DNA from: Candidatus Kuenenia stuttgartensis | Lineage (GTDB): Bacteria; Planctomycetota; Brocadiia; Brocadiales; Brocadiaceae | Direction of reading: 5' to 3' | NCBI RefSeq assembly: GCF_900232105.1 | Contig: NZ_LT934425.1 | Span: 1,290,001-1,322,000 of the forward strand | Length of the DNA: 32,000 nt | Shown: piece after piece, positions 2,167 through 13,194 of the stretch | Layout: the number at the start of each line of letters is the position of its first letter | Numbering within the stretch: position 1 is the stretch's first letter | Position numbers and translations under genes: made by a program | The notes under the pieces: model-generated | What the model was told of the DNA's origin: nothing | Seen by the model: the letters and a program-made list of their open reading frames with translations, nothing else | The model's database searches: none

Positions 2167-3036
2167 TTATGACAATAATCCATAATCTTCTAATACAGTC
2201 TTTAGTCTTTCCTCATTTTCTTTCGTTATCTCGCACAGTGGCAAACGCATCTCACCGTTTAGCCTCCCTAATAATTTCATAGCCGTCTTGACAGGAATGG
2301 GATTTGTCTCGATAAACATCCCTTTGCATAACGGAAAGAGCTTGTAGTGGTATTCCAACGCCTTTCCGAAATTGCCTTCTAAGCAATGCCTGACGAGAGC
2401 GGCGGTATCGGACGGGGCTATATTGGCGGTTACCGATATTACCCCTTTCCCTCCCACGGACATAATAGGGAGGATAAGGGAATCTTCTCCGGAAAGAACT
2501 GTTATATTGCACAGTTGCGATATTTTAGTTGCCTGATCGATATTTCCGCTAGCATCTTTTATTGCAACAATGTTTTTCATTTCAGCAAGCCTTGCCACGG
2601 TTTCGGGCAAAATAGAAATACCCGTCCTGGAAGGTACATTATATATTACAATGGGAATATCAACCTCTTCTGCTATTGCTTTATAATGCCGGTAAAGCCC
2701 TTCAGGGGTCGGTTTATTATAATAAGGAGTAATGACCAACGCGCCGTCTGCCCCTGTTTTTCTGGCATGTTTTGTCAAATGGATGGCTTCTTTGGTATTG
2801 TTCGAACCCGCTCCCGCGATAACGGGTATTCTGCCGGATACATAATTTACCACCTCGCTTACCACCTGTTCATGTTCTTCAAAAGAAAGCGTTGCGGCCT
2901 CGCCGGTTGTGCCGCAGGGAACGATTCCATTTGTTCCGTTCTCAATATGAAATTCAACAAGCTCTTTTAATTTTTTATAATCAACTTGCCCATTATTAAA
3001 GGGGGTTACCAAGGCCACAAGGGAACCTTTAAACAT
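2167..3036 (-). CDS. dapA: 4-hydroxy-tetrahydrodipicolinate synthase (DapA)
   Basis: N-terminal VALVTPF....[13 protein letters not shown] and ..AIKDASGN.. motifs. I chose the ATG at 3036 (AGGAG 7 nt upstream) over the ORF-track TTG at 3042. Confidence 0.92.
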
Positions 3037-3166
3037 AATCAAGCTCCTTTTTCAGAAATAACAAAAACACAATTATGGTACGCAAGAAATAACGCTTTCT
3101 ACCTTTTGAAATGCAATCGTTTATTTAAGTCAGGCCTTCGGCGAAAATTCCTATATAAATTACAGG

Positions 3167-3916
3167 TTAGTCCAACGAAGTCCCCGGCTTTGCCATACTG
3201 TGCCTGAAAATCAAATCCTTCATTTCCTGCACGGCTTTTTTTATTCCGACAAAAACAGATCGGGAAACGATGCTATGCCCGATATGCAACTCTTCTACAT
3301 CCAGTGATTCCACGATATGTCCAACATTTTGATAAGTTAACCCATGCCCTGCATTTACCCTTAAACCTAAACCATGCGCAATCTTAATGCCTTGTCTGAG
3401 TTTTTCCGTCCATTTCGCCCTTAAGTTCACATCCTTCGCATTTGCGTAATTACCTGTATGCAGTTCTATAAACTGTGACCCAACCTCTTTTGCAGCAATA
3501 ATCTGTTCTTCTTCAGGATCTATAAAAAGACTTATCAATATGCCTGCATCGGCAAGTCGTTTTACCACCCTGCCAATAACACTTTTTTGTGACGCCACAT
3601 CAAGTCCGCCCTCGGTGGTAACCTCTTGCCTTTTTTCAGGTACGAGGGCGACCTGTTCGGGTTTTGTTTTAATTGCTATGTCTACAATTTCATCCGCAAT
3701 GGACATCTCAAGGTTTAGTTTGGTAAAAACCGTTTCCCTGAGTAATAGTATATCCCGGTCTTGTATGTGCCTTCTGTCTTCTCTCAAATGAACGGTAATA
3801 ATATCTGCGCCGCCAAGAATTGCAAAAGAGGCGGCAGTCACAGGATCTGGTTCATACGTCTTTCTTGCCTGACGGAGGGTAGCAACGTGGTCGATGTTTA
3901 CTCCTAACTTTATCAT
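3167..3916 (-). CDS. pdxJ: Pyridoxine 5'-phosphate synthase (PdxJ)
   Basis: LGVNIDHVATLRQAR...HLREDRRHI...NAGHGL pattern. ATGA overlap with the upstream gene stop. Confidence 0.92.
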   Translation of the reverse strand: MIKLGVNIDHVATLRQARKTYEPDPVTAASFAILGGADIITVHLREDRRHIQDRDILLLRETVFTKLNLEMSIADEIVDIAIKTKPEQVALVPEKRQEVTTEGGLDVASQKSVIGRVVKRLADAGILISLFIDPEEEQIIAAKEVGSQFIELHTGNYANAKDVNLRAKWTEKLRQGIKIAHGLGLRVNAGHGLTYQNVGHIVESLDVEELHIGHSIVSRSVFVGIKKAVQEMKDLIFRHSMAKPGTSLD

Positions 3917-4923
3917 TGTTTTCCGCTTTCTGAAGGGTTCTCCCTTTCCCTGATATCAAGGTGGGCATCGGGCAATTTATCAACAATTTCAAGGTTTTTG
4001 CTTAAATGGCATTTAATCGGCTGTTTGTAGGGTCCCGGGGGTTTTAATGAAGTAACATCAACATAGGGCAAGATATCCTCCGGATTCAGCTTTTCCAGCA
4101 AAAGCTTTGAACCTTTTATTTTTATATTGACGTACTCATCTCTCAATTTAATAACATACGGATAATTATCCGGCATCAGTATTTTTATTTTTAACTTTTC
4201 TATAACCCTGGTTTCCTGTTTTTCCACCACTTGCAGCCACATGCGTATATCCTGATCGCAGACAACTGGTACCGTAATGCTTTTATCTCCATGTTTAACG
4301 GTTACTTTTTGATCAATCTCAATTCGCCAGGGAAAGGTGCGGTTTTGTTCAACGGTAATACCTCCAATATCGACTGGTATCGTGTTGATGGAGACAACCT
4401 CTTTTAAAGCATTCAAAGGGCCTTCAACTTCTACCTCGGCGGGAAAAACAAATTCATTCGCAATGGTATATCCGATAGCAGGCTCCCCCTTTTTTTGCAA
4501 ATTAACCTTAAGCCTTTTTTTTTGCAATTTTCCCAGTAAGATGCTTACTTTTTCAGGGTAAACGGATATTAATTTGACGGAATTAGGCAAGCCGAGATGC
4601 TCTCTGCCAATAATTACCGTCTGTTTGATTTGATCCTCAATTCCCTCCGGAGATTCCTGGATAACGTATTTTGCATGAACTTTTTGGTCTTTGATCAGAC
4701 CCTTCGTAGTTTCAATCACATTTTGAGGGCCTCTGAGATGCACCACAATATCTTCCGCACTTTGCTCAAGCACCGTAATTCCTGTTGGGACAGAAACTGA
4801 TAGCCTCACAACCTCTGTCAAATCTTCCGTATGCCTGTTAATTGCATACAGCCAGAGGGCGATTGCCATCACTAATGCCATAAATTTTGTGAGAAGATTG
4901 CCGGTAATTATTTCTTTAATCAC
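3913..4923 (-). CDS. cdaR: YbbR-domain protein (CdaR-like regulator of diadenylate cyclase)
   Basis: N-terminal TM helix followed by repeated beta-rich YbbR-like segments. It lies immediately downstream of cdaA, as in the conserved cdaA-cdaR pair. GTG start. Confidence 0.75.
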   Translation of the reverse strand: MIKEIITGNLLTKFMALVMAIALWLYAINRHTEDLTEVVRLSVSVPTGITVLEQSAEDIVVHLRGPQNVIETTKGLIKDQKVHAKYVIQESPEGIEDQIKQTVIIGREHLGLPNSVKLISVYPEKVSILLGKLQKKRLKVNLQKKGEPAIGYTIANEFVFPAEVEVEGPLNALKEVVSINTIPVDIGGITVEQNRTFPWRIEIDQKVTVKHGDKSITVPVVCDQDIRMWLQVVEKQETRVIEKLKIKILMPDNYPYVIKLRDEYVNIKIKGSKLLLEKLNPEDILPYVDVTSLKPPGPYKQPIKCHLSKNLEIVDKLPDAHLDIRERENPSESGKQ

Positions 4924-4925
4924 GA

Positions 4926-5747
4926 CTATTTAGTCCTGGAAAGGCTAAACTTTTCAGAGGATAGTTCATTCAGAATCTTTTTCAATTCTTTGTCATCAAC
5001 CCCACGGTTCAATGTCCCTTTGTATGTCACAGACACATTGCCCGTCTCCTCAGATACCACAATCACAATTGCGTCCGTTTCCTCTGTAAGCCCGACAGCC
5101 GCCCGGTGACGTGTTCCCAGCTCTTTTGATAATTCTTTATTTCCGGTAAGCGGCAACAAACATCCGGCAGCGCTTATTTTCTGCTCCTGAATAATCACCG
5201 CACCATCGTGCAATGGAGAACCTGGCCAGAAGATAGAGCATAGCAGTTCACTGGTGGCATCAGCATTTAGTTTAATCCCGGTTTCTGCAAAGTTGTTCAG
5301 GCCTGCTTCCCTTTCTATAGCAATAAGAGCGCCTATTCTCTTTTTTGATAAAATGCCGACAGCCTTAAGTATTTCATCAACTACCCGGTAATCAGGTTTT
5401 GCCATTACGCTGAAAACAGGGCTCTGACCAAGCCTAAACAATGCACGCCGGAATTCCGGTTGAAATAAAATAATCATTGGCACAATAAACACCGGCACAA
5501 ATTCCGTTACCAGCCAATTGATTGTATATAATTGCAGTTTCCTTATAAAAAACAATATACCTACGGAGATTAAAACAATAATAAACGCCACACCTCTTAA
5601 AATGCTTGTACCACTAGTACCCTGCATGATTCTGAGAACGGCATAAAGCATTATATAAATAAGAAATATCTCCCCCGCTGACCGTAGAATCATACGCCCG
5701 CTGATATCTCCGAATAATATTGACAGGTTTTCTAACATCTTAAGCAT
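4926..5747 (-). CDS. cdaA: Diadenylate cyclase CdaA (c-di-AMP synthase)
   Basis: Three N-terminal TM helices plus a DAC domain (GALIAIE...HDGAVII...GTRHRAAVGLTEETDAIVIVVSEETG). The start could alternatively be M4 at 5738. Confidence 0.9.
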   Translation of the reverse strand: MLKMLENLSILFGDISGRMILRSAGEIFLIYIMLYAVLRIMQGTSGTSILRGVAFIIVLISVGILFFIRKLQLYTINWLVTEFVPVFIVPMIILFQPEFRRALFRLGQSPVFSVMAKPDYRVVDEILKAVGILSKKRIGALIAIEREAGLNNFAETGIKLNADATSELLCSIFWPGSPLHDGAVIIQEQKISAAGCLLPLTGNKELSKELGTRHRAAVGLTEETDAIVIVVSEETGNVSVTYKGTLNRGVDDKELKKILNELSSEKFSLSRTK

Positions 5748-6579
5748 TCCTTATCGCATCGCATATTGTTGCCACATGGACAGCAGCTTTCACATCATGT
5801 ACCCGTATGATATTTGCGCCATTCATAATTGACACGGCAAGGGTGGCAAGCGTTCCGTATAACCGCTCCTGTGCCGAAACATTCAATAGCGCTCCAATAA
5901 AATTTTTCCGTGATGTGCCTATTAACAAAGGATATCCCATTCCCTTAAACTCGTATAGCTTTTTCAGTATTTCAAGATTTTGCTGCATAGTCTTGCCAAA
6001 ACCTATCCCCGGATCCAAAATTATTTTACTTTTCTCAATTCCTGCTTCCATTGCGGTAGAAATGGATCTCTTCAAACAGGACATTATTTCCGGAAACAGA
6101 TCTTTACATATGGGATTTTTTTGCATTGTCAGGGGAGATCCTTTTTTATGCATTATGACAACAGGCACTCTTGCCCCGGCAATGACCTTTGACATGTTTT
6201 CATCGTCAATCAAACCGCCAATGTCATTTACCATTGACGCACCCTCTTCAATTGCTCTCTTTGCTACAACTGCCTTGTATGTATCGATGGAGATAGGTTT
6301 ATTGATCTCTTTTGATAGTATCTTTATCAGCGGAATCACCCTCTTTAATTCTTCTTCCTCAGATATCGGGCTCGCCCCAGGTCTGGTAGATTCACCGCCA
6401 ACATCAATAATATCCGCTCCTTCTTCTATCATCTTATGCGCATGATCAATCGCCTCTTCGGGAACAAAATGCTTGTTGCCATCATAAAAGGAGTCGGGCG
6501 TTATATTCAAGACACCCATAATGTGCGTTTTCCCGCCCAGGCACAACTTTCCCCGAGGGTAATCAATTTCAAAATACAC
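5740..6579 (-). CDS. folP: Dihydropteroate synthase (FolP)
   Basis: IMGVLNITPDSFYDG, DVGGESTRPGA and DPGIGFGK motifs. I trimmed the start to the GTG at 6579 (GAGGA 8 nt upstream, product about 279 aa, which is typical). The ORF-track extension to 6696 is translation of heptamer tandem repeats. Confidence 0.88.
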   Translation of the reverse strand: MYFEIDYPRGKLCLGGKTHIMGVLNITPDSFYDGNKHFVPEEAIDHAHKMIEEGADIIDVGGESTRPGASPISEEEELKRVIPLIKILSKEINKPISIDTYKAVVAKRAIEEGASMVNDIGGLIDDENMSKVIAGARVPVVIMHKKGSPLTMQKNPICKDLFPEIMSCLKRSISTAMEAGIEKSKIILDPGIGFGKTMQQNLEILKKLYEFKGMGYPLLIGTSRKNFIGALLNVSAQERLYGTLATLAVSIMNGANIIRVHDVKAAVHVATICDAIRNA

Positions 6580-6588
6580 GAAAACAAT

Positions 6589-6623
6589 CCTCAGTCCCCA
6601 GTCCCCAGTCCCCAGTCCCCAAT
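6589..6623. repeat. Heptanucleotide tandem array 1: CCTCAGT, (CCCCAGT)x3, CCCCAAT
   Basis: Read directly. Five contiguous 7-nt units lie 10 nt upstream of the proposed folP start. Confidence 0.95.
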
Positions 6624-6631
6624 CTGCAATT

Positions 6632-6669
6632 TGCCGACTGCCGACTGCCGACTGCCGACTGCCGACTGC
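6632..6669. repeat. Heptanucleotide tandem array 2: (TGCCGAC)x5 plus a partial unit
   Basis: Read directly. It is separated from array 1 by 8 nt (6624..6631). Confidence 0.95.
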
Positions 6670-6757
6670 ATAAGGAACCATTAAATATTTTGCCAAAAGT
6701 GCGAAGAAATTACTGATAAAGTACTATATTATGGTTTTTGGGTGAACCACGGAACAC

Positions 6758-6801
6758 ACGGAATACGCGGAAAGAAGAAAATAAACTTCCGTGTATTCCG
6801 T
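6758..6801. repeat. Subterminal hairpin (15-bp stem with one mismatch, 14-nt loop) at the left end of the candidate element
   Basis: ACGGAATACGCGGAA-N14-TTCCGTGTATTCCGT. No U-run follows on the minus strand, so it is not a canonical intrinsic terminator. Confidence 0.7.
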
Positions 6802-6840
6802 ACTACTATCCATCAATTTCTTGTTTTTTATGCGTGTTTT

Positions 6841-8397
6841 TCATGCCGCCATTTCCGTAAGTGCTTTAATATCAAGGGCTGAAGCGGTCATCAGTGAACA
6901 AGAGAACTTCTGGCCTTTCTCCGTCAAAACATAGCGGTTGGCCCTCGGAACTTTGCGGATTAGACCGTGTGCCCGCAGCATCTTTATCCGTCGGGTCGTT
7001 CGTCCGGAATATTTCTTTTGCTGATCCTTGCCGGATTGTTCGGATTCCCGGTAAAGCCACTTACGCAAATCATGGTTGCGGAATCCATTTATCGCGTTTT
7101 CGCCTTTGGACAGGAACATCAGCATCTGGTAATCATCCTGCTGCCAGGGATTCAAACCTCGATACCTCTTGCCCTCTTTGACAACCTTGTTACAAGCGCT
7201 GCTCACCACTTCTTTCAGTTTCTCCTCTACCTGAGCCGCCGCCAAAGCATCCCCATAACGATCATTGCATTGTTGGCTCACCTCACACCGTCGATGAAGA
7301 TCGCTTACGCCCTTACGCATCTTCTGCCATGACGCCGGTTTGCCTTCATCATCATTGGGACTCCGAAAGACCTTAAAGTCCCGCGTATTATTGATCGTTG
7401 TCTCAATACGCAAGAGACTACCGCTCTTGTTATACATCTTCACTGAATTATAATTCACACTGTGCTTGACCCGTATACCTTCATAGCGTCTTCGATAGTC
7501 GCTGATAACCTCATCAGGGGCAGCGCCTGCAAGGTTACGCCTACCCAAATACTTCATCACCGAAGAACTGTCGCAAACCCGCATCGCATGATGAACAAAC
7601 GATGGAAACAACTCCTCCAATGCCTCAACCGATTTAAACATGATGTCCGTCGCCCACTCCGTCTCATCCGCAGACCAGTAATACTCCGGTTCCAACGGAC
7701 GAAGAATCTGCGACAATGCCGGGCAACTGCCCAACGCAAGCCCGTTCAGCAGCTTCGCCCAGTCAGTCTTAAGCTGCTCATGGAGCAGAACCTGCGCAGC
7801 CGCAATATCCTCTATACGCACAAAACAGTTGCCGTCCTTAACATAATCAATACCTTGCTTCTGAAGTTGCCGCTCCAGCCAATGACGACCATTGAGACAA
7901 ATGAAAATATTAAACGGCGCCCAACTCTGGATACGAACATGACCAAAACCAAACACTGGATCGTTAAAATAATGATACACAAAGACACACTTGCGGGGCG
8001 CCATTACCAACTCGAGCTTCTTGCTGGCCTTGTTGCCCTTGACCATCGGCGCAATACAAGGCTCTACCACACTCAACAGGCAGATGGAACCTTCCGTAAT
8101 CCTCTTATCCGCCGCGATCTGGCGAGCCAACTTCTCCTTATCAACACCGCTGCTCATCAAATACCGCACCTCGATACCCAAATCTTTCGCCCGCGATTCA
8201 CAACTGTCTCGCACCTGTGCCGTAAGCCCATTGACCCAACCGGAAAAATCCTTAAGCAGAATTCTCGCTTGGTTCATGAATGTTCCCATCCCACGCTCAC
8301 TGGCCAACCACCGCAATGTCCCGCGAAAACGAATCCTGTCCAGACCGCTTATTGCACCCACGATCCTGTCTCGATATAATTCCATCAACTTATTCAT
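6841..8397 (-). CDS. Hypothetical 518-aa protein with a C-terminal winged-helix-like segment; family not recognised
   Basis: Long uninterrupted ORF with GGAGGA 8 nt upstream of the ATG. The C-terminus (RRIKMLRAHGLIRKVPRANRYVLTEKG) looks like a wHTH recognition region. I cannot identify a catalytic motif with confidence. Confidence 0.8.
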   Translation of the reverse strand: MNKLMELYRDRIVGAISGLDRIRFRGTLRWLASERGMGTFMNQARILLKDFSGWVNGLTAQVRDSCESRAKDLGIEVRYLMSSGVDKEKLARQIAADKRITEGSICLLSVVEPCIAPMVKGNKASKKLELVMAPRKCVFVYHYFNDPVFGFGHVRIQSWAPFNIFICLNGRHWLERQLQKQGIDYVKDGNCFVRIEDIAAAQVLLHEQLKTDWAKLLNGLALGSCPALSQILRPLEPEYYWSADETEWATDIMFKSVEALEELFPSFVHHAMRVCDSSSVMKYLGRRNLAGAAPDEVISDYRRRYEGIRVKHSVNYNSVKMYNKSGSLLRIETTINNTRDFKVFRSPNDDEGKPASWQKMRKGVSDLHRRCEVSQQCNDRYGDALAAAQVEEKLKEVVSSACNKVVKEGKRYRGLNPWQQDDYQMLMFLSKGENAINGFRNHDLRKWLYRESEQSGKDQQKKYSGRTTRRIKMLRAHGLIRKVPRANRYVLTEKGQKFSCSLMTASALDIKALTEMAA

Positions 8398-8572
8398 AAG
8401 TAGTGTCCTCCAAATTGTCTGATTACTATTTACGAGGATACTACTATACTTTATAATAAACTAAAAATCACCTTTTTGGTTGCGGCCAAAGGCCGCGCTA
8501 GGTGTTCCGTGGTCTAAATCTTTAATTTTGCAATTCTCCAAGTTGCCTGTTTATCAAACCATGTCTTTTGTG

Positions 8573-9118
8573 TCACCACCAATCTTCCTCCATTGATTCC
8601 ACAATACTTTGCGCCAATTTTACAAATGATTCGTTACTGGAAGAAGTGAGTGTTTCATTTCTTAAAACAATAAACTCTGTCGTGCCTTTTATATTCTTCC
8701 GTTCAACGATTGCCCTTCCCGTCCGTGTATCAACCCATCGAATGTCCGCCCTGATAGTTACCCTACTTTCCACAATATTGTCTTTTCTGTCCTCAATTAA
8801 TACATTTTCATTTACACTTGAAATTTTTCCAAACAGAATGGAATCTGCTTCATCTTTGTCAACAATACGCAAATTTGTTCTTAACAACAGTTGGTCGCGT
8901 ACTGCCCTGGTTAAATCGAATTCGTATCCTCTGCGAAAGGTATCATTATCAAAAATGGGGACATAGATGCTTCGAACATTTGAACGAAGCAATGACTTTG
9001 AGCTGTAACCGCATCCCGTTATAAAAAAGAAGATCATAAGAAACACCAGAGCAGAAAGGGTGTAATGCCTTCTTTTAAAAACACAGGGTATTGTCATTTT
9101 ATAAAAACACTTTGGCAT
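8573..9118 (-). CDS. Putative LptE-like outer-membrane lipoprotein
   Basis: Signal peptide with lipobox FITGC. Size and pattern (SIYVPIFDNDT...) resemble LPS-assembly lipoprotein LptE. Adjacent to a BamD-like gene. The start could be M8 at 9097. Confidence 0.5.
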   Translation of the reverse strand: MPKCFYKMTIPCVFKRRHYTLSALVFLMIFFFITGCGYSSKSLLRSNVRSIYVPIFDNDTFRRGYEFDLTRAVRDQLLLRTNLRIVDKDEADSILFGKISSVNENVLIEDRKDNIVESRVTIRADIRWVDTRTGRAIVERKNIKGTTEFIVLRNETLTSSSNESFVKLAQSIVESMEEDWW

Positions 9119-9143
9119 AATGTTTTATCTTTTTCTCATAGGG

Positions 9144-10070
9144 TTATTTTATCGCCTCAATCATCCTGAGAAATTCCAATCTTTCCATAGCCCTTTCCGC
9201 CCAAATAGTATCAGGAAAATCTTTCATAACATATTTAAAATAAATCGCCGCGGAAGACGGGGTTTTTCTCCTCAAATAAAACTCGCCAATTTCAAACTCA
9301 CGCCTTGCTTCAATAACCCTTATTTCTTCTATCATTCTGCTGGCGTCTTCAACATACACCCCATGGGGATTTGTTACGAGATATTCCTCAAAACCTTCCC
9401 TTGCGGATACAAGCAAACCATAGTTGCGCTCCTGCTGTTTTTCGAAGTAAAATTTTGAAAGTGGTATTTGATACTGCACATAGGGAATCCATTCATTTCT
9501 TGGATAGCTTTCCATAAATTTCTTATAGGCATCCACCGCATCTTCATAATATCCCAGCTTGAAATAGCAATCTGCTATTTTAATTTGCGATTCAGGGGCA
9601 ATAGGTCCCATCGGGTGATTTTCAATAATCTTTTCAAATACCCTTATCGCGGCATTCTCATCCATCTCCATTTGCGCAATACCTACCTGAAACACCTTCT
9701 CATGCACCTCTTTTGTCCTCTTTGTTCCCGGATATTCCCTCAAAACCGTATCATATGCCTTTAATGCCCGGTTATAATCTCCATTGAGATAATAGGCCCA
9801 TCCTATGTTTATCTGAGAAAGCTCCGCATACGCTGAGTCCGGATAACCGTCAATAATTAGTTTAAACTCTTTTATGGCGCTAACATATTTTTGTTCCACC
9901 AGCATGAACAGTGCATTTTTATAGCGCTGTTCCGGCGATCCGACGTCGCCAGTCGGCGGCTGCATCCACCCGGTATCTTTGTTCCAGACCCATTTTCCGT
10001 AAGACGCCGTTGATATTAAAAATGTAACAGCAAGCACTATTATTGGGAAAAAACCTGAGCGCAATTTCAT
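9144..10070 (-). CDS. BamD/YfiO-like TPR protein (outer-membrane assembly factor-like)
   Basis: Signal peptide followed by repeated TPR-like units of the BamD type (..YPDSAYAELSQINIGWAYY.., ..YPRNEWIPYVQY..). ATGA overlap with the recO stop. Confidence 0.6.
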   Translation of the reverse strand: MKLRSGFFPIIVLAVTFLISTASYGKWVWNKDTGWMQPPTGDVGSPEQRYKNALFMLVEQKYVSAIKEFKLIIDGYPDSAYAELSQINIGWAYYLNGDYNRALKAYDTVLREYPGTKRTKEVHEKVFQVGIAQMEMDENAAIRVFEKIIENHPMGPIAPESQIKIADCYFKLGYYEDAVDAYKKFMESYPRNEWIPYVQYQIPLSKFYFEKQQERNYGLLVSAREGFEEYLVTNPHGVYVEDASRMIEEIRVIEARREFEIGEFYLRRKTPSSAAIYFKYVMKDFPDTIWAERAMERLEFLRMIEAIK

Positions 10071-10840
10071 ATTTTTATGCCTTCTTGCGGGGAAAAGTTA
10101 ACATATTTCCACGAGTTTAACTCTTTTTTCAACAACGAAACAATATAATATCTCAGCACCTTTTCTATTTCAACACAAATAGATAATTGTACCCGGACAC
10201 GTTCCAACCGATGCAAATTAAGGTTCGCCAACCTACCTGCAATAAACATAGCGCCTGCAGAAATCAGCATTCCGTTTTTCAATTCTCCAGGGCACCCCAC
10301 ACATCTCGCGCCGCCTTCCACTGCATTAAAAGTAACCATCTCATGGTGGGGTATTTTCTTTTTACAATGAATGCAATGCTCCCATTCCGGTAAATATCCC
10401 AAAATGTTTAGCATTTTTAACTCAAAGGCCAATAACCATATTGTGGTGTTTGTGTCAGTGGCAATGTGATTTAGCGTATTAAGAAATAAATCAAAAAGCG
10501 GCTCGTTGGGGTCGTTTTTTTCTGTAAATTCGTTGACAAGTTCTGCCATACAGGAAGCCCTGAAATACTTATCAAGGTCATGCCGGAATGCGGGATAGTT
10601 GTTTTGCAATACCGCATCGGTGAGGGTATGGAGGGTAGAATGTTCCTTTTTAATAAAGAGAATCCGGTAGTGCGTTAAAAGATCGATTGCTTTTGAGTTG
10701 TACTTGCCTGAAGAGCGCTTGAAGCCTTTTGCAATGGTATTTATCTTCCCGTAATCCCTGGTATAGAAAATGATGATTTGGCTTGAATCGCTATAATCTG
10801 TCCTTCCCAAGGTAATTGCATCTGTTTTTAAGATGGACAT
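10067..10840 (-). CDS. recO: DNA repair protein RecO
   Basis: N-terminal OB-fold pattern (KTDAITLGRTDYSDSSQII.F.TRDYGK) and a CxxC...CxxC zinc motif (CIHC...CVGC). Confidence 0.85.
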   Translation of the reverse strand: MSILKTDAITLGRTDYSDSSQIIIFYTRDYGKINTIAKGFKRSSGKYNSKAIDLLTHYRILFIKKEHSTLHTLTDAVLQNNYPAFRHDLDKYFRASCMAELVNEFTEKNDPNEPLFDLFLNTLNHIATDTNTTIWLLAFELKMLNILGYLPEWEHCIHCKKKIPHHEMVTFNAVEGGARCVGCPGELKNGMLISAGAMFIAGRLANLNLHRLERVRVQLSICVEIEKVLRYYIVSLLKKELNSWKYVNFSPQEGIKI

Positions 10841-10855
10841 ATTATGGTATGTTAA

Positions 10856-11290
10856 TTAATCCGGGACAGAAATATTGTACCCAAGCTTTGACAATAATTC
10901 CTTTTCCCTCCGATGCATGACTTTTGCATCACCTTTTTTTTTATCATTATAACCAATTAAATGCAGCAAGCCATGTATGAGATACAGGGCTATTTCTCCT
11001 TCCGCATCATGGCAATGTTCCTTTGCAACTTTATATGCCATCTCTGCGGATACAATGATTTCTCCAGCGACATGATTTTCCGATGCATCATAAATAAAAC
11101 TCAAAACATCCGTTGCATAATCATGCCCCAGAAAAGCTTTGTTTAATCTCCTTATTTCCTTGTTATCAGTGACGACAATGCTAAGGCTGGCGTCTTTGTT
11201 TTCACTTTTTAACACCCTTTTTATCAATTTTACTATGCGTTTTTCATCGATAGCATAGGATTTCTGCCGGTTTACAACTTCCAGCTTCAT
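10856..11290 (-). CDS. ybeY: rRNA maturation endoribonuclease YbeY
   Basis: 144 aa with the H-x3-H-x5-H metal motif (HGLLHLIGYND). Confidence 0.9.
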   Translation of the reverse strand: MKLEVVNRQKSYAIDEKRIVKLIKRVLKSENKDASLSIVVTDNKEIRRLNKAFLGHDYATDVLSFIYDASENHVAGEIIVSAEMAYKVAKEHCHDAEGEIALYLIHGLLHLIGYNDKKKGDAKVMHRREKELLSKLGYNISVPD

Positions 11291-11357
11291 GAGAACCTTT
11301 TTCTTCTATCATAGCGCAGCATAGCCGCAACCAAAAAGATTTTTTACCTTATAAATA

Positions 11358-12350
11358 CTATAATTCATATGCCGCAACAATATCCCGAACCAGCTTATGG
11401 CGGACAATATCGGATTTGGCAAGATATACGAATGCTATATTGTCTACATTCATAAATCTTTCCTGGGCATCAATCAAACCCGATAACTCCCCGCCCGGCA
11501 AATCAACTTGTGTGATATCCCCGGTAACGACAACCTTTGATTTCGTACCAAGCCTTGTTAAAAATGTCTTCATCTGCTTTACCGTACAATTTTGCGCCTC
11601 ATCCAGAATAATAAAGGCGCTGTTTAAGGTTCTCCCGCGCATATATGCAAGCGGCAGGATCTCTATCAGATCGCTGTCCAGATATTTTTTCACCTGCCCG
11701 ACGTCCATCATATCCGCTAAAGCGTCATACAGCGGCCGCAAATAAGGACTTACCTTGTCTTTGATATCTCCCGGCAGATATCCAAGTTTTTCTCCTGCCT
11801 CTACCGCAGGCCTTGCAAGCACAATCCTTTTTACGTCTCCGCTTTTGAGAAAAGAAAGCGCCATCGCCACCGCCAGGTAGGTCTTTCCTGTTCCGGCAGG
11901 TCCAATGCAAAAAACAAGATCATTGTTTCTGATGGCCGCAATATAATTTGCCTGCCCCTCTGTCTTGGGCCTTGTGAACATCTCTTTTTGGAAAAGATTG
12001 ATTGCTTGTGCGGGTGCCCCTTCATCATAATTTTGTACATCCATAATGGTCTGCTCCACGTCCTTCACTCCCAGATTCCCCGTGAATCTAATTATTTCAA
12101 GCAATTTAATTAAGGACGTTCTAGCTGCTTCGACACCCTCTTTTTCGCCCGCCATCTTCAATACCCCGTTACGTGCTACTAATTTTACCCGAAAAGCATC
12201 CCTTATCAGGCGCAAATTTTTATCATGGTTTCCATATAAAAGGGACGCTTCATCATCATTTTCAAGGATTATTGCATCTTTAGCGGGTAAAAATTCCTGT
12301 ATATTTTCCTTTATTGCAACGTATTTTTGTGTTTCAACTCCTTGATTCAT
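11358..12350 (-). CDS. ybeZ: PhoH-family ATPase (YbeZ-like)
   Basis: Walker A GPAGTGKTYLAVA, ILDEAQN and VVTGDITQVDLP blocks. Classic phoH-ybeY adjacency. Confidence 0.9.
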   Translation of the reverse strand: MNQGVETQKYVAIKENIQEFLPAKDAIILENDDEASLLYGNHDKNLRLIRDAFRVKLVARNGVLKMAGEKEGVEAARTSLIKLLEIIRFTGNLGVKDVEQTIMDVQNYDEGAPAQAINLFQKEMFTRPKTEGQANYIAAIRNNDLVFCIGPAGTGKTYLAVAMALSFLKSGDVKRIVLARPAVEAGEKLGYLPGDIKDKVSPYLRPLYDALADMMDVGQVKKYLDSDLIEILPLAYMRGRTLNSAFIILDEAQNCTVKQMKTFLTRLGTKSKVVVTGDITQVDLPGGELSGLIDAQERFMNVDNIAFVYLAKSDIVRHKLVRDIVAAYEL

Positions 12351-12352
12351 GC

Positions 12353-13194
12353 TTAGATTAACTTAAAAAAAAGTAAAAAATAATATGTCACCGGCAGACT
12401 TACCAGCAAACAATCAATAATATCCAATACGCCGCCAAAGGAGGGCACCAGATTCCCCGAGTCCTTAACATTCGCATCTCTTTTTATCAATGACTCTGCC
12501 AGGTCGCCTAAAATAGCGAAAGAACCCACAACAGCTCCAAATAAAACCGACCATGGCAGGCTGATTACCCTGGTTTGCGGAATACTATTAAATATCACTG
12601 CTACTAAAATGCTACTTATAACAGAGAAGCAAGCCCCTTCAACCGTTTTATTGGGGCTTATACTCCTTGCAAGCTTATGCTTTCCATACTTCCTGCCCAA
12701 CAAATACCCGCCAATGTCTCCAAATTTTGAAACCAACAGGGCCATTATCACCACACATGTTCCATTGGGAAAATGGCGTAAAGCAATCGCAAAACCAAGC
12801 AGAAAAGGAACATAAAAAATGCCAAAGACCGTTACGGAAATATTTTTAATCGCATCTTTTGCGCCGCGTGTGACCGCCTGTAGGAGCAATAGCAAAAAAA
12901 TGAGTACGAGAACAATGTCTTTTCTGAAAAATTGGGACTCTGCGCCGGCGTCCCCATGTATGGATACCCAATAGCTTACAAACAGCCATATCCCGATGCC
13001 GATGCCGGCTACGCGAAATGGACGAAATCCGCATTTACCCGCAATAGTGTAAAACTCATACAATCCCATCCCTGCCGCAACCATTGCAATACAGCCGAAC
13101 CCAATGTCTGTGGAAAACATGACGTCAAGGCTCATTACTCCAAAAAACACCGCAAATAAAATTACACCAAGCGTTACCCTTGTTTTAAGCGTGC

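Follow-up and report, generated by a model that had tools for sequence, protein, structure and literature searches.

We analysed a window of 32,000 nucleotides (nt) from the anammox bacterium Candidatus Kuenenia stuttgartensis (contig NZ_LT934425.1, positions 1,290,001 to 1,322,000), in which a block with a single gene lies between lptE and folP. The window is identical to contig OCTL01000074.1 of assembly GCA_900232175.1. The gene is one intact open reading frame (ORF) of 518 amino acids (aa) with a good ribosome-binding site, GGAGGA, 8 nt upstream of its ATG. A preliminary description of this DNA had proposed that the block may be a mobile element and that its protein belongs to no transposase family that could be named. 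Both proposals held, the second in searches of Pfam and NCBIfam. The G+C contrast that it reported is real but far weaker than it had estimated: the block has 48.5% G+C and the rest of the window 42.2%, not about 55% against 32 to 40% (neighbouring genes, 37.7 to 43.5%). The housekeeping genes around the block are all on the minus strand, the element gene has the same orientation as its neighbours, and the GC skew of the plus strand is negative over nearly all of window positions 3000 to 13000.

The exact 518-aa protein is encoded at at least 10 further sites in the complete genome CP049055.1, which is that of Candidatus Kuenenia stuttgartiensis strain CSTR1 (PMC7709395). Ten copies in that genome differ from the window copy by no more than one mismatch over positions 6802-8501, and their flanks are unrelated. 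Copies with 100% internal identity cease to match precisely where CTAGCG... begins at the 5' end and where ...GTAGT stops at the 3' end. In the metagenome-assembled genome (MAG) STL-AMX1, three mutually 100%-identical copies of a 91%-identical relative have the same boundaries as the copy in the window. The element therefore runs from CTAGCGCGGCC... (5') to ...GGATAGTAGT (3') in the window, or, in the orientation of its gene, 5'-CTAGCGCGGCCTTTGGCCGCAACC ... GATGGATAGTAGT-3'. It has no terminal inverted repeats, and its two ends are asymmetric. These copies show that the element, an autonomous insertion sequence (IS), is multicopy and was recently mobile. The protein does not appear in the transposase tables of the CSTR1 paper, in the portions of that paper accessible to us (PMC7709395).

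Other strains have empty sites, for which the preliminary description had suggested a search. At five loci (L059, L060, L183, L185 and L186) the lptE and bamD-like genes are followed directly by the folP upstream region, reading GGTGGTAACACAG/CAGTAATTTC across the junction (slash). The element is present at the lptE-folP locus in six others (L057, L058, L184 and L187 to L189). Several short-read contigs end at its edge.

The element belongs to a large family. Relatives with 40 to 96% protein identity were found in Planctomycetota, Desulfobacterota, Acidobacteriota, Bacteroidota, Alpha- and Gammaproteobacteria and two archaeal bins, often with two to four copies per genome bin. STL-AMX1 has three or four copies and several MAGs of Desulfobacterota have two or three, and in MAGs of other phyla, too, near-identical copies with discrete common ends lie at unrelated sites. 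The metagenome homologues number in the thousands, and most of them lie on contigs of 1.7 to 2.4 kb. This is the size of the element, and it is the usual sign of a repeat collapsed by the assembler. We also found 15 miniature derivatives of 154 to 291 bp that encode no protein and keep only the left stem-loop and the right tail. These derivatives must be moved in trans.

Three further observations concern individual relatives. Copies with 71 to 73% protein identity lie on short contigs binned as Thermoplasmatales and Aenigmatarchaeota (L004 and L005), which could be cross-domain transfer or a binning error. A subfamily of about 41% protein identity in Desulfobacterota (L033, L034 and L044) differs at its left end, which is longer and reads TCCGGAAAACCCCTTTTTGCAAAACGCTGCC-loop-GGCCGCAACC, and its right end lies about 170 nt beyond the stop codon. 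In L013, at about 2850-2925, a solo left-end fragment, ACGCAGCAGAGCCGCAACCAACAAAGCTCA, stands directly upstream of a copy with a large internal deletion, an arrangement that suggests nested or repeated insertion at one spot.

The preliminary description had placed the ends of the element at a perfect 12-bp inverted repeat. The repeat is present (ACCACGGAACAC at 6746-6757 and GTGTTCCGTGGT at 8502-8513), and these are its only two matches in the window at up to one mismatch, against 0.03 expected. However, it lies outside the sequence common to the copies and is absent at the other sites, and we rejected it as the element boundary. The same applies to the 9-mer ACGGAAYAC, which does occur exactly four times, all at the two ends (0.25 expected), but is target DNA and is likewise absent from other copies. 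The hairpin with a 15-bp stem was confirmed at 6749-6801. These features belong to a palindrome whose arms are arrays of the 9-nt units ACGGAACAC, ACGGAATAC and ACGGAAG, and the element interrupts one arm. The intact arm reads ACCACGGAACACACGGAATAC..., and the interrupted arm reads ACCACGGAACAC, then the element, then ACGGAATAC... Removal of positions 6802-8501 from the interrupted arm gives exactly the sequence of the intact arm. Therefore, nothing was duplicated or lost at insertion. The reconstructed palindrome has a DNA folding energy of about -27 kcal/mol. Most target sites of other copies are not palindromic, so a palindrome is not required.

Removing the element from all 11 Kuenenia sites yields CCAY-RRA-NNN(N)-C^AY-RRA, where the caret marks the insertion point. 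Examples are CCAC AGATTA C^AC AGATTAAAA, CCAC AAAGGG C^AC AAAGAC and CCAT AAATCTT C^AT AAATGCG. The restored sites show that insertion takes place within a CAY trinucleotide that precedes RRA (C^AY-RRA), and a second CAY-RRA usually lies 9 to 10 nt, or one helical turn, upstream of the insertion point. The base after GTAGTA is C or T and varies together with the target, and the AC or AT that follows GTAGT was therefore assigned to the target. Sequence logos of the junctions agree with this site. Of 160 independent left junctions, 94% have a C at position -4, counted from GCGCGG, and in 47% AC-RRA begins 12 to 13 nt before GCGCGG (background, about 1%). At 37 right junctions the flank opens with R (100%), R (100%) and A (89%), and a further AC-RRA lies 9 to 10 nt downstream in 23% of them. 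In L024, a full copy sits inside the upstream half-site of a truncated resident copy, with the junction GTAGT-AC-AGAGTT-C/ACAGCGCGG. L028 has a head-to-tail junction, GTAGT/ACAGCGCGG, between a full copy and a miniature copy of 153 bp. Both arrangements fit targets built of tandem CAY-RRA units.

The 6 to 8 nt that flank the two ends are 61% alike within a copy and 49 +/- 2.4% alike between copies, and 0 of 2000 permutations reached the observed value. This likeness is better explained by short tandem CAY-RRA arrays as targets, together with preferences of the subfamilies. Coupling sequences of the Tn916 type, and a left spacer brought along from the right flank of the donor, were rejected because no spacer matched the flank of another copy; the reading as target arrays is also the simpler one. 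A target-site duplication of 6 to 9 bp, for which the preliminary description had suggested comparing copies, was likewise rejected. The Kuenenia copies show none, and the flanking repeats are imperfect even in identical copies and vanish once AC or AT is assigned to the target. Guide pairing of the IS608 kind was rejected as well: the mutual information of the target and the 4 nt next to the hairpin is at most 0.1 bit.

Four copies in CP049055.1 (L201, L202, L205 and L196) lie within paralogous short repeats that differ by one 9-nt unit, for example ...GGAACCAC AGATTAC / AC AGATT(R)CAC AGATTAAAAAATT... The Kuenenia genome may thus hold a family of small CAC-RRA arrays that either attract the element or have been shaped by it. 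A second Brocadiaceae copy in one arm of a palindrome of CCAC-RRA-type units was seen in STL-AMX1 (L001, about 2880-4680), which reads CCCACAAAACA, the IS, then ...GCGTCTTTTCGTGGG.

The left end carries the conserved motif listed in Table 1. Its stem-loop, GCGGCC-TTT-GGCCGC at 8482-8496, begins 5 nt from the tip of the element, is followed by AACC, and has a DNA folding energy of -7.6 kcal/mol. The loop is 3 to 13 nt long among the copies. The 9-mer GCCGCAACC (8478-8486) is present in every copy found, including those with 40% protein identity, and the same 9-mer served as the search anchor for the ends. We propose, by analogy with the double-strand origin of plasmids, that the stem-loop could be the binding site of a nickase. 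The right tail is about 40 nt long and terminates in GGATAGTAGT. A scan for sigma-70 promoters found no match on the gene strand of the element, and an Rfam search of the element also gave no match.

Table 1. Features of the element and of its insertion site, with positions in the window.
Feature	Position	Strand	Remarks
Insertion sequence proper	6802..8501	-	1700 bp; span common to the other copies
Sole gene, putative 518-aa transposase	6841..8397	-	1557 of 1700 bp (92% of the element)
Left-end motif CTA-GC-GCGGCC-TTT-GGCCGC-AACC	8478..8501	-	present in all copies down to 40% protein identity
Right-end non-coding tail AAAACACGCATAAAAAACAAGAAATTGATGGATAGTAGT	6802..6840	-	conserved across subfamilies; kept in miniature derivatives
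Anti-Shine-Dalgarno segment TAGTAGTATCCTCG	8433..8446	-	in 5' untranslated region; pairs with the Shine-Dalgarno sequence and start region
Shine-Dalgarno sequence GGAGGA and ATG of the transposase gene	8395..8413	-	sequestered by the anti-Shine-Dalgarno segment
Target DNA, upstream side, CCAC-GGAACA-C	8502..8512	-	first CAY-RRA half-site and the C of the cut C^AC; within the right-hand repeat arm
Target DNA, downstream side, AC-GGAATA-CAC-GGAAG	6786..6801	-	AC completes the cut CAC; RRA and the next 9-nt units come after it
Uninterrupted palindrome arm ACCACGGAACACACGGAATACGCGGAA	6746..6772	+	equals the pre-insertion state of the interrupted arm; contains the left-hand 12-bp repeat arm
Whole segment missing from the element-free allele	6712..8568		element with about 67 bp upstream and about 90 bp downstream, palindrome included

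The 5' untranslated region (UTR) of the gene can hide its start. In the window copy, the duplex of the anti-Shine-Dalgarno and Shine-Dalgarno segments has an energy of -15.7 kcal/mol (z = -3.8). Although their sequences here differ widely, 12 divergent copies retain the pairing (-13 to -25 kcal/mol; z from -2.3 to -8.7). It was measured by the duplex energy of each sequence, because the position of the anti-Shine-Dalgarno segment differs between subfamilies. The pairing probably limits translation of the transposase, by analogy with IS10 and IS200.

The protein matches no named family. The window protein gave no match in Pfam, NCBIfam (whose models include the IS families used by the Prokaryotic Genome Annotation Pipeline), PHROG or PADLOC beyond weak winged-helix ones at residues 460-507, and winged-helix models aside the same was true of 92 diverse family members. 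The preliminary description could place no DDE, HUH, serine-recombinase or tyrosine-recombinase motif in it, and no such family was detected with Pfam, NCBIfam or Foldseek. Among 1.84 billion cluster representatives, a profile search retrieved 10,314 relatives (clusters at 50% identity) at E <= 1e-3 and 1,580 at E <= 1e-30. RefSeq labels the homologues hypothetical, and one on a Paraburkholderia plasmid is labelled "ArsR family transcriptional regulator".

An AlphaFold model made from the alignment of the 92 sequences has a predicted local distance difference test score (pLDDT) of 93.1 and a predicted template modelling score (pTM) of 0.85. The core of the model is formed by two modules of five long β-strands with flanking helices, at residues 12-169 and 240-335, and helical and winged-helix regions follow. 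The strands of the first module are 12-27, 103-122, 127-146, 150-157 and 164-169, and those of the second are 240-254, 298-304, 307-314, 317-324 and 328-335. The predicted domains are a two-module β-sheet like that of TATA-box-binding protein (TBP) at about residues 1-390 and a C-terminal winged helix at about 440-507. The winged helix had been noted in the preliminary description, and it is borne out by a weak match to Pfam HTH_45, a match to MarR in the Protein Data Bank (PDB) at residues 461-507, and the model itself. Foldseek found nothing in the PDB at E <= 1e-3, including RNase-H-like transposases, tyrosine or serine recombinases and HUH nucleases, and gave only weak matches to TBP and winged-helix proteins. 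Among viral models, the best matches were TATA-box-binding proteins of giant viruses (E = 9e-4, probability 0.97). Thus the RNase-H-like or recombinase fold that the preliminary description had considered was not found, and a TBP-like sheet is predicted in its place.

Across the 92 sequences, which share 27 to 69% identity, Y322, R330 and E332 are invariant, and D20, D251, G307, R309 and K324 are conserved in at least 90%. In the model, D20 lies on the first strand of module 1 and D251 on the first strand of module 2. The sequence Y322-N-K324 is on the fourth strand of module 2 (317-324), and L328-L-R330-I-E332 is on the fifth (328-335). We propose that D20, D251, Y322 and E332 form the active site of the modelled protein.

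This arrangement resembles Rep_trans (PF02486), the family of RepC/RepD of pT181, RstA of CTXphi and the MOB_T relaxases of Tn916 and ICEBs1. The Rep_trans fold consists of two five-strand modules resembling TBP (PMC4797284). Its motifs are N' (D), I (RxD), II (T/SxY/ExG), III (YxKxxE) and IV (W/LxRxE), with the catalytic Tyr on a β-strand and a D-D-E triad that binds metal (PMC5714925). The element protein has in common with Rep_trans the predicted pseudo-symmetric TBP-like sheet of two times five strands, the invariant Tyr on a β-strand in YxK, the LxRxE motif and a separate C-terminal DNA-binding domain; the element also has a conserved stem-loop beside the presumed nick site. Two conserved Asp, which may correspond to the metal ligands of Rep_trans, come in the same order. 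In pT181 RepC, as given in the plasmid record, the corresponding stretches are SFD46AMTIVG, RLD142LAF, YFG180VR, RIY191NKK and LWRVE214. A local profile alignment places D251, G307/R309, Y322 and E332 opposite D142, G180/R182, Y191 and E214 of RepC, in the same order, and the best full-length alignments, which are not significant, pair D20 with D46. The element protein exceeds Rep_trans proteins by about 200 residues and has long insertions in its first module. It shows no significant sequence or profile match to them, and it is encoded by a 1.7-kb multicopy chromosomal element.

A second likeness is to Rep-Arvir (DUF7845, PF25227) of archaeal pleolipoviruses and plasmids. This protein is a rolling-circle nickase with the TBP-like fold of bacterial Rep_trans followed by a MarR-like winged helix, and it behaves in searches as the element protein does (PMC13107129, 2026). 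In both proteins a TBP-like catalytic domain, here a predicted one, is N-terminal and precedes the winged helix, and with Foldseek both give the winged helix only in the PDB and TBPs among the viral models. The catalytic residues have similar spacing (E25/D207/Y283/E303 in Rep-Arvir, D20/D251/Y322/E332 here), and a VK-x-Y motif is shared. The element protein is unlike Rep-Arvir in being bacterial and not archaeal, and in being carried by an IS and not by a virus or plasmid replicon. From the fold, the topology and the order of the motifs, and not from sequence statistics, we infer that the 518-aa protein is a transposase and a divergent member of the Rep_trans/Rep-Arvir tyrosine nickases.

We consider it probable that the element is a single-strand (rolling-circle) transposon like IS91 and Helitrons, driven by a tyrosine nickase of the Rep_trans type. 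The following scheme is drawn by analogy with Rep_trans enzymes, IS91 and Helitrons. The nickase would bind the left-end stem-loop, as a plasmid Rep binds its double-strand origin, with the winged helix contributing to DNA recognition. It would then nick one strand at the left junction and become linked to the 5' end through Y322, with D20, D251 and E332 as metal ligands. The strand would be displaced up to the right end and released at GTAGT^AY. Its integration at a C^AY nick in the target could be direct or could pass through a circular form with the junction GTAGT/CTAGCG, and host replication would then supply the second strand. Such a scheme is accepted for IS91 and proposed for Helitrons, in both cases with the other fold of rolling-circle nucleases. 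More speculatively, the spacing of the tandem half-sites by one helical turn may point to a dimeric enzyme that, like RepC/RepD, has two active sites.

Several observations weigh against this assignment and this mechanism. PF02486 matches neither the window protein (E <= 1) nor the 92 family members (E <= 0.01). Full-length hhalign comparisons, with E values of 0.28 to 0.49, were not significant with the RepC profile (E = 0.28), with the single RepC sequence, or with the DUF7845 protein (E = 0.49). PF25227 does not match the window protein, whereas ORF9 of HRPV-3 scores E = 5e-115 with that model. The local alignment of module 2 with RepC has P = 0.026 for a region that was selected afterwards. 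Motif III lacks its trailing E, and motif I lacks the R of RxD. The right end has no hairpin. No single-strand intermediate was seen, about 190 loci contained no circle junction, and the sole head-to-tail junction is that of L028. A rough local proxy based on GC skew, which mostly tracks gene orientation, showed no replication-strand bias. Finally, the element-free allele also lacks about 150 bp of flanking DNA, which this model does not account for. No further copy of these flanks (6712-6801 and 8502-8568) was found among the loci compared, nor was an allele with the palindrome and without the element found among the compared Kuenenia strains. However, the lptE-folP intergenic region varies between strains in the copy number of a heptamer repeat and in an indel of about 130 bp downstream, and it may simply be a variable spot.

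The alternative that survives best is an IS with an enzyme like a site-specific recombinase, which would exchange double strands through a circular intermediate and the CAY-RRA target, as IS110, IS607 and Tn916 do. We regard it as unlikely. It would fit insertion that is sequence specific and makes neither duplication nor inverted repeats, two tandem half-sites that suggest binding as a dimer, and the head-to-tail junction in L028. The likeness of the two flanks within a copy recalls coupling or overlap sequences, but it is also explained by tandem-array targets and half-site preferences of the subfamilies. In addition, the protein resembles tyrosine and serine recombinases and DEDD enzymes in neither fold nor sequence, and its conserved residues fit the Rep_trans motifs. 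Pfam and Foldseek found no Phage_integrase or Resolvase domain in it, as would be expected from Tn916, IS607 or Tn554.

It is still less likely that the ORF encodes a DNA-binding regulator, or the Rep of a tiny integrated rolling-circle replicon, and that the element is moved by a host or trans-acting enzyme. The C-terminal winged helix and the ArsR label of the Paraburkholderia homologue are in keeping with a regulator, and the smallest rolling-circle plasmids likewise consist of one Rep-like gene and a hairpin. However, the element has at least 11 identical chromosomal copies that end at the same precise points and share a target motif, as is typical of an IS and not of a regulator or an integrated plasmid. 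The gene makes up nearly all of the element and is the only one that it carries. The miniature derivatives retain the ends only, about 390 residues beyond the winged helix are conserved with a constellation resembling an active site, and the approximately 190 loci include neither free circular contigs nor circle junctions.

A highly divergent DDE (RNase-H-like) transposase that escaped the sequence and fold searches is very improbable: most IS families do use DDE enzymes, and D20, E112, E247, D251 and E332 are conserved acidic residues, but the confident model has no RNase-H-like domain, Foldseek gave no DDE transposase or integrase at E <= 1e-3, the invariant Tyr lies in a YxK motif on a β-strand, and the terminal inverted repeats and target duplication that most DDE insertion sequences have are absent. 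Pfam, NCBIfam, Foldseek and the copies themselves gave none of the three traits of the IS3, IS4, IS5 and ISNCY groups.

With the rolling-circle nickase as the preferred reading, the behaviour of the element is closest to that of IS91/ISCR and Helitrons, and its protein is closest to Rep_trans and Rep-Arvir. Like IS91/ISCR and Helitrons, the element carries one large gene between asymmetric ends, of which one has a hairpin close by; it lacks terminal inverted repeats, does not duplicate its target and inserts next to a short specific sequence. Its proposed tyrosine nickase would be kin to plasmid replication initiators, as theirs are, and abutting head-to-tail copies are possible in both. In contrast, the element protein lacks an HUH motif, a helicase and the Y2_Tnp and Zn_Tnp_IS91 domains. 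Its fold is predicted to be the TBP-like one of Rep_trans and not HUH/RRM, the hairpin of the element is at the 5' end, and its target is C^AY-RRA with a tandem half-site, compared with GAAC/CAAG for IS91 and A^T for Helitrons.

Other insertion sequences share some of these traits. IS200/IS605 elements also lack inverted repeats and duplication, have a subterminal hairpin and insert 3' of a short specific sequence, and IS200 has a 5' UTR structure that hides the ribosome-binding site. However, they encode an HUH Y1 TnpA of 150 aa and have hairpins at both ends, whereas the element has no Y1_Tnp match, a hairpin at the left end only, and no covariation of the target with the 4 nt adjoining the hairpin. 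IS110/IS1111 elements, and IS1397 and ISKpn1 of the IS3 family, which use repetitive extragenic palindromic (REP) sequences, also insert into extragenic DNA that is palindromic or repeated, and IS110 has neither duplication nor typical inverted repeats. The element differs from these in giving no match to DEDD_Tnp_IS110, Transposase_20 or DDE models, in having no non-coding region large enough for a bridge RNA, and in its empty Rfam search.

Near the element, two adjacent tandem arrays of heptamers occupy 6585-6675 of the lptE-folP intergenic region (plus strand), with about four copies of CAGTCCC and about five of TGCCGAC. Only one or two copies are present in L183, L185 and L186. The TTG-started ORF called as folP (5740-6696) runs through these arrays, so the real start of folP is probably an ATG near 6500.

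Transposons are classed by the chemistry of their transposases: DDE, DEDD, HUH, tyrosine recombinase, serine recombinase, reverse transcriptase and Cas1. To our knowledge, rolling-circle transposition is found only with HUH enzymes (IS91 and Helitrons). Rep_trans and Rep-Arvir proteins are known only as replication initiators of plasmids and phages and as conjugative relaxases, not as transposases (PMC5714925, PMC13107129). A full-text search, whose coverage was partial and did not include ISfinder, found no paper in which a transposase or an IS is connected with Rep_trans or with a TBP-like fold, and transposition is a use that has not been described for the Rep_trans superfamily. With somewhat less assurance than we hold for the rolling-circle mechanism, we favour the view that a tyrosine nickase with the Rep_trans/TBP fold is a previously unrecognised class of prokaryotic transposase, which drives a very widespread IS family and its miniatures. 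If this is true, transposition would have taken up the two rolling-circle endonuclease folds on separate occasions, and the list would gain a new class.

The short defined ends, the clean C^AY-RRA insertion without duplication and the single protein make the system directly testable and possibly a tool. Counted at 50% identity, the family exceeds 10,000 clusters. It is found in anaerobic environmental bacteria and spans Planctomycetota, Desulfobacterota, Acidobacteriota, Bacteroidota and Proteobacteria. Because its members are labelled hypothetical or "ArsR regulator", IS counts and studies of assembly breaks and genome plasticity overlook them. Kuenenia, whose rearrangements have been attributed to transposases, is included in this annotation gap.

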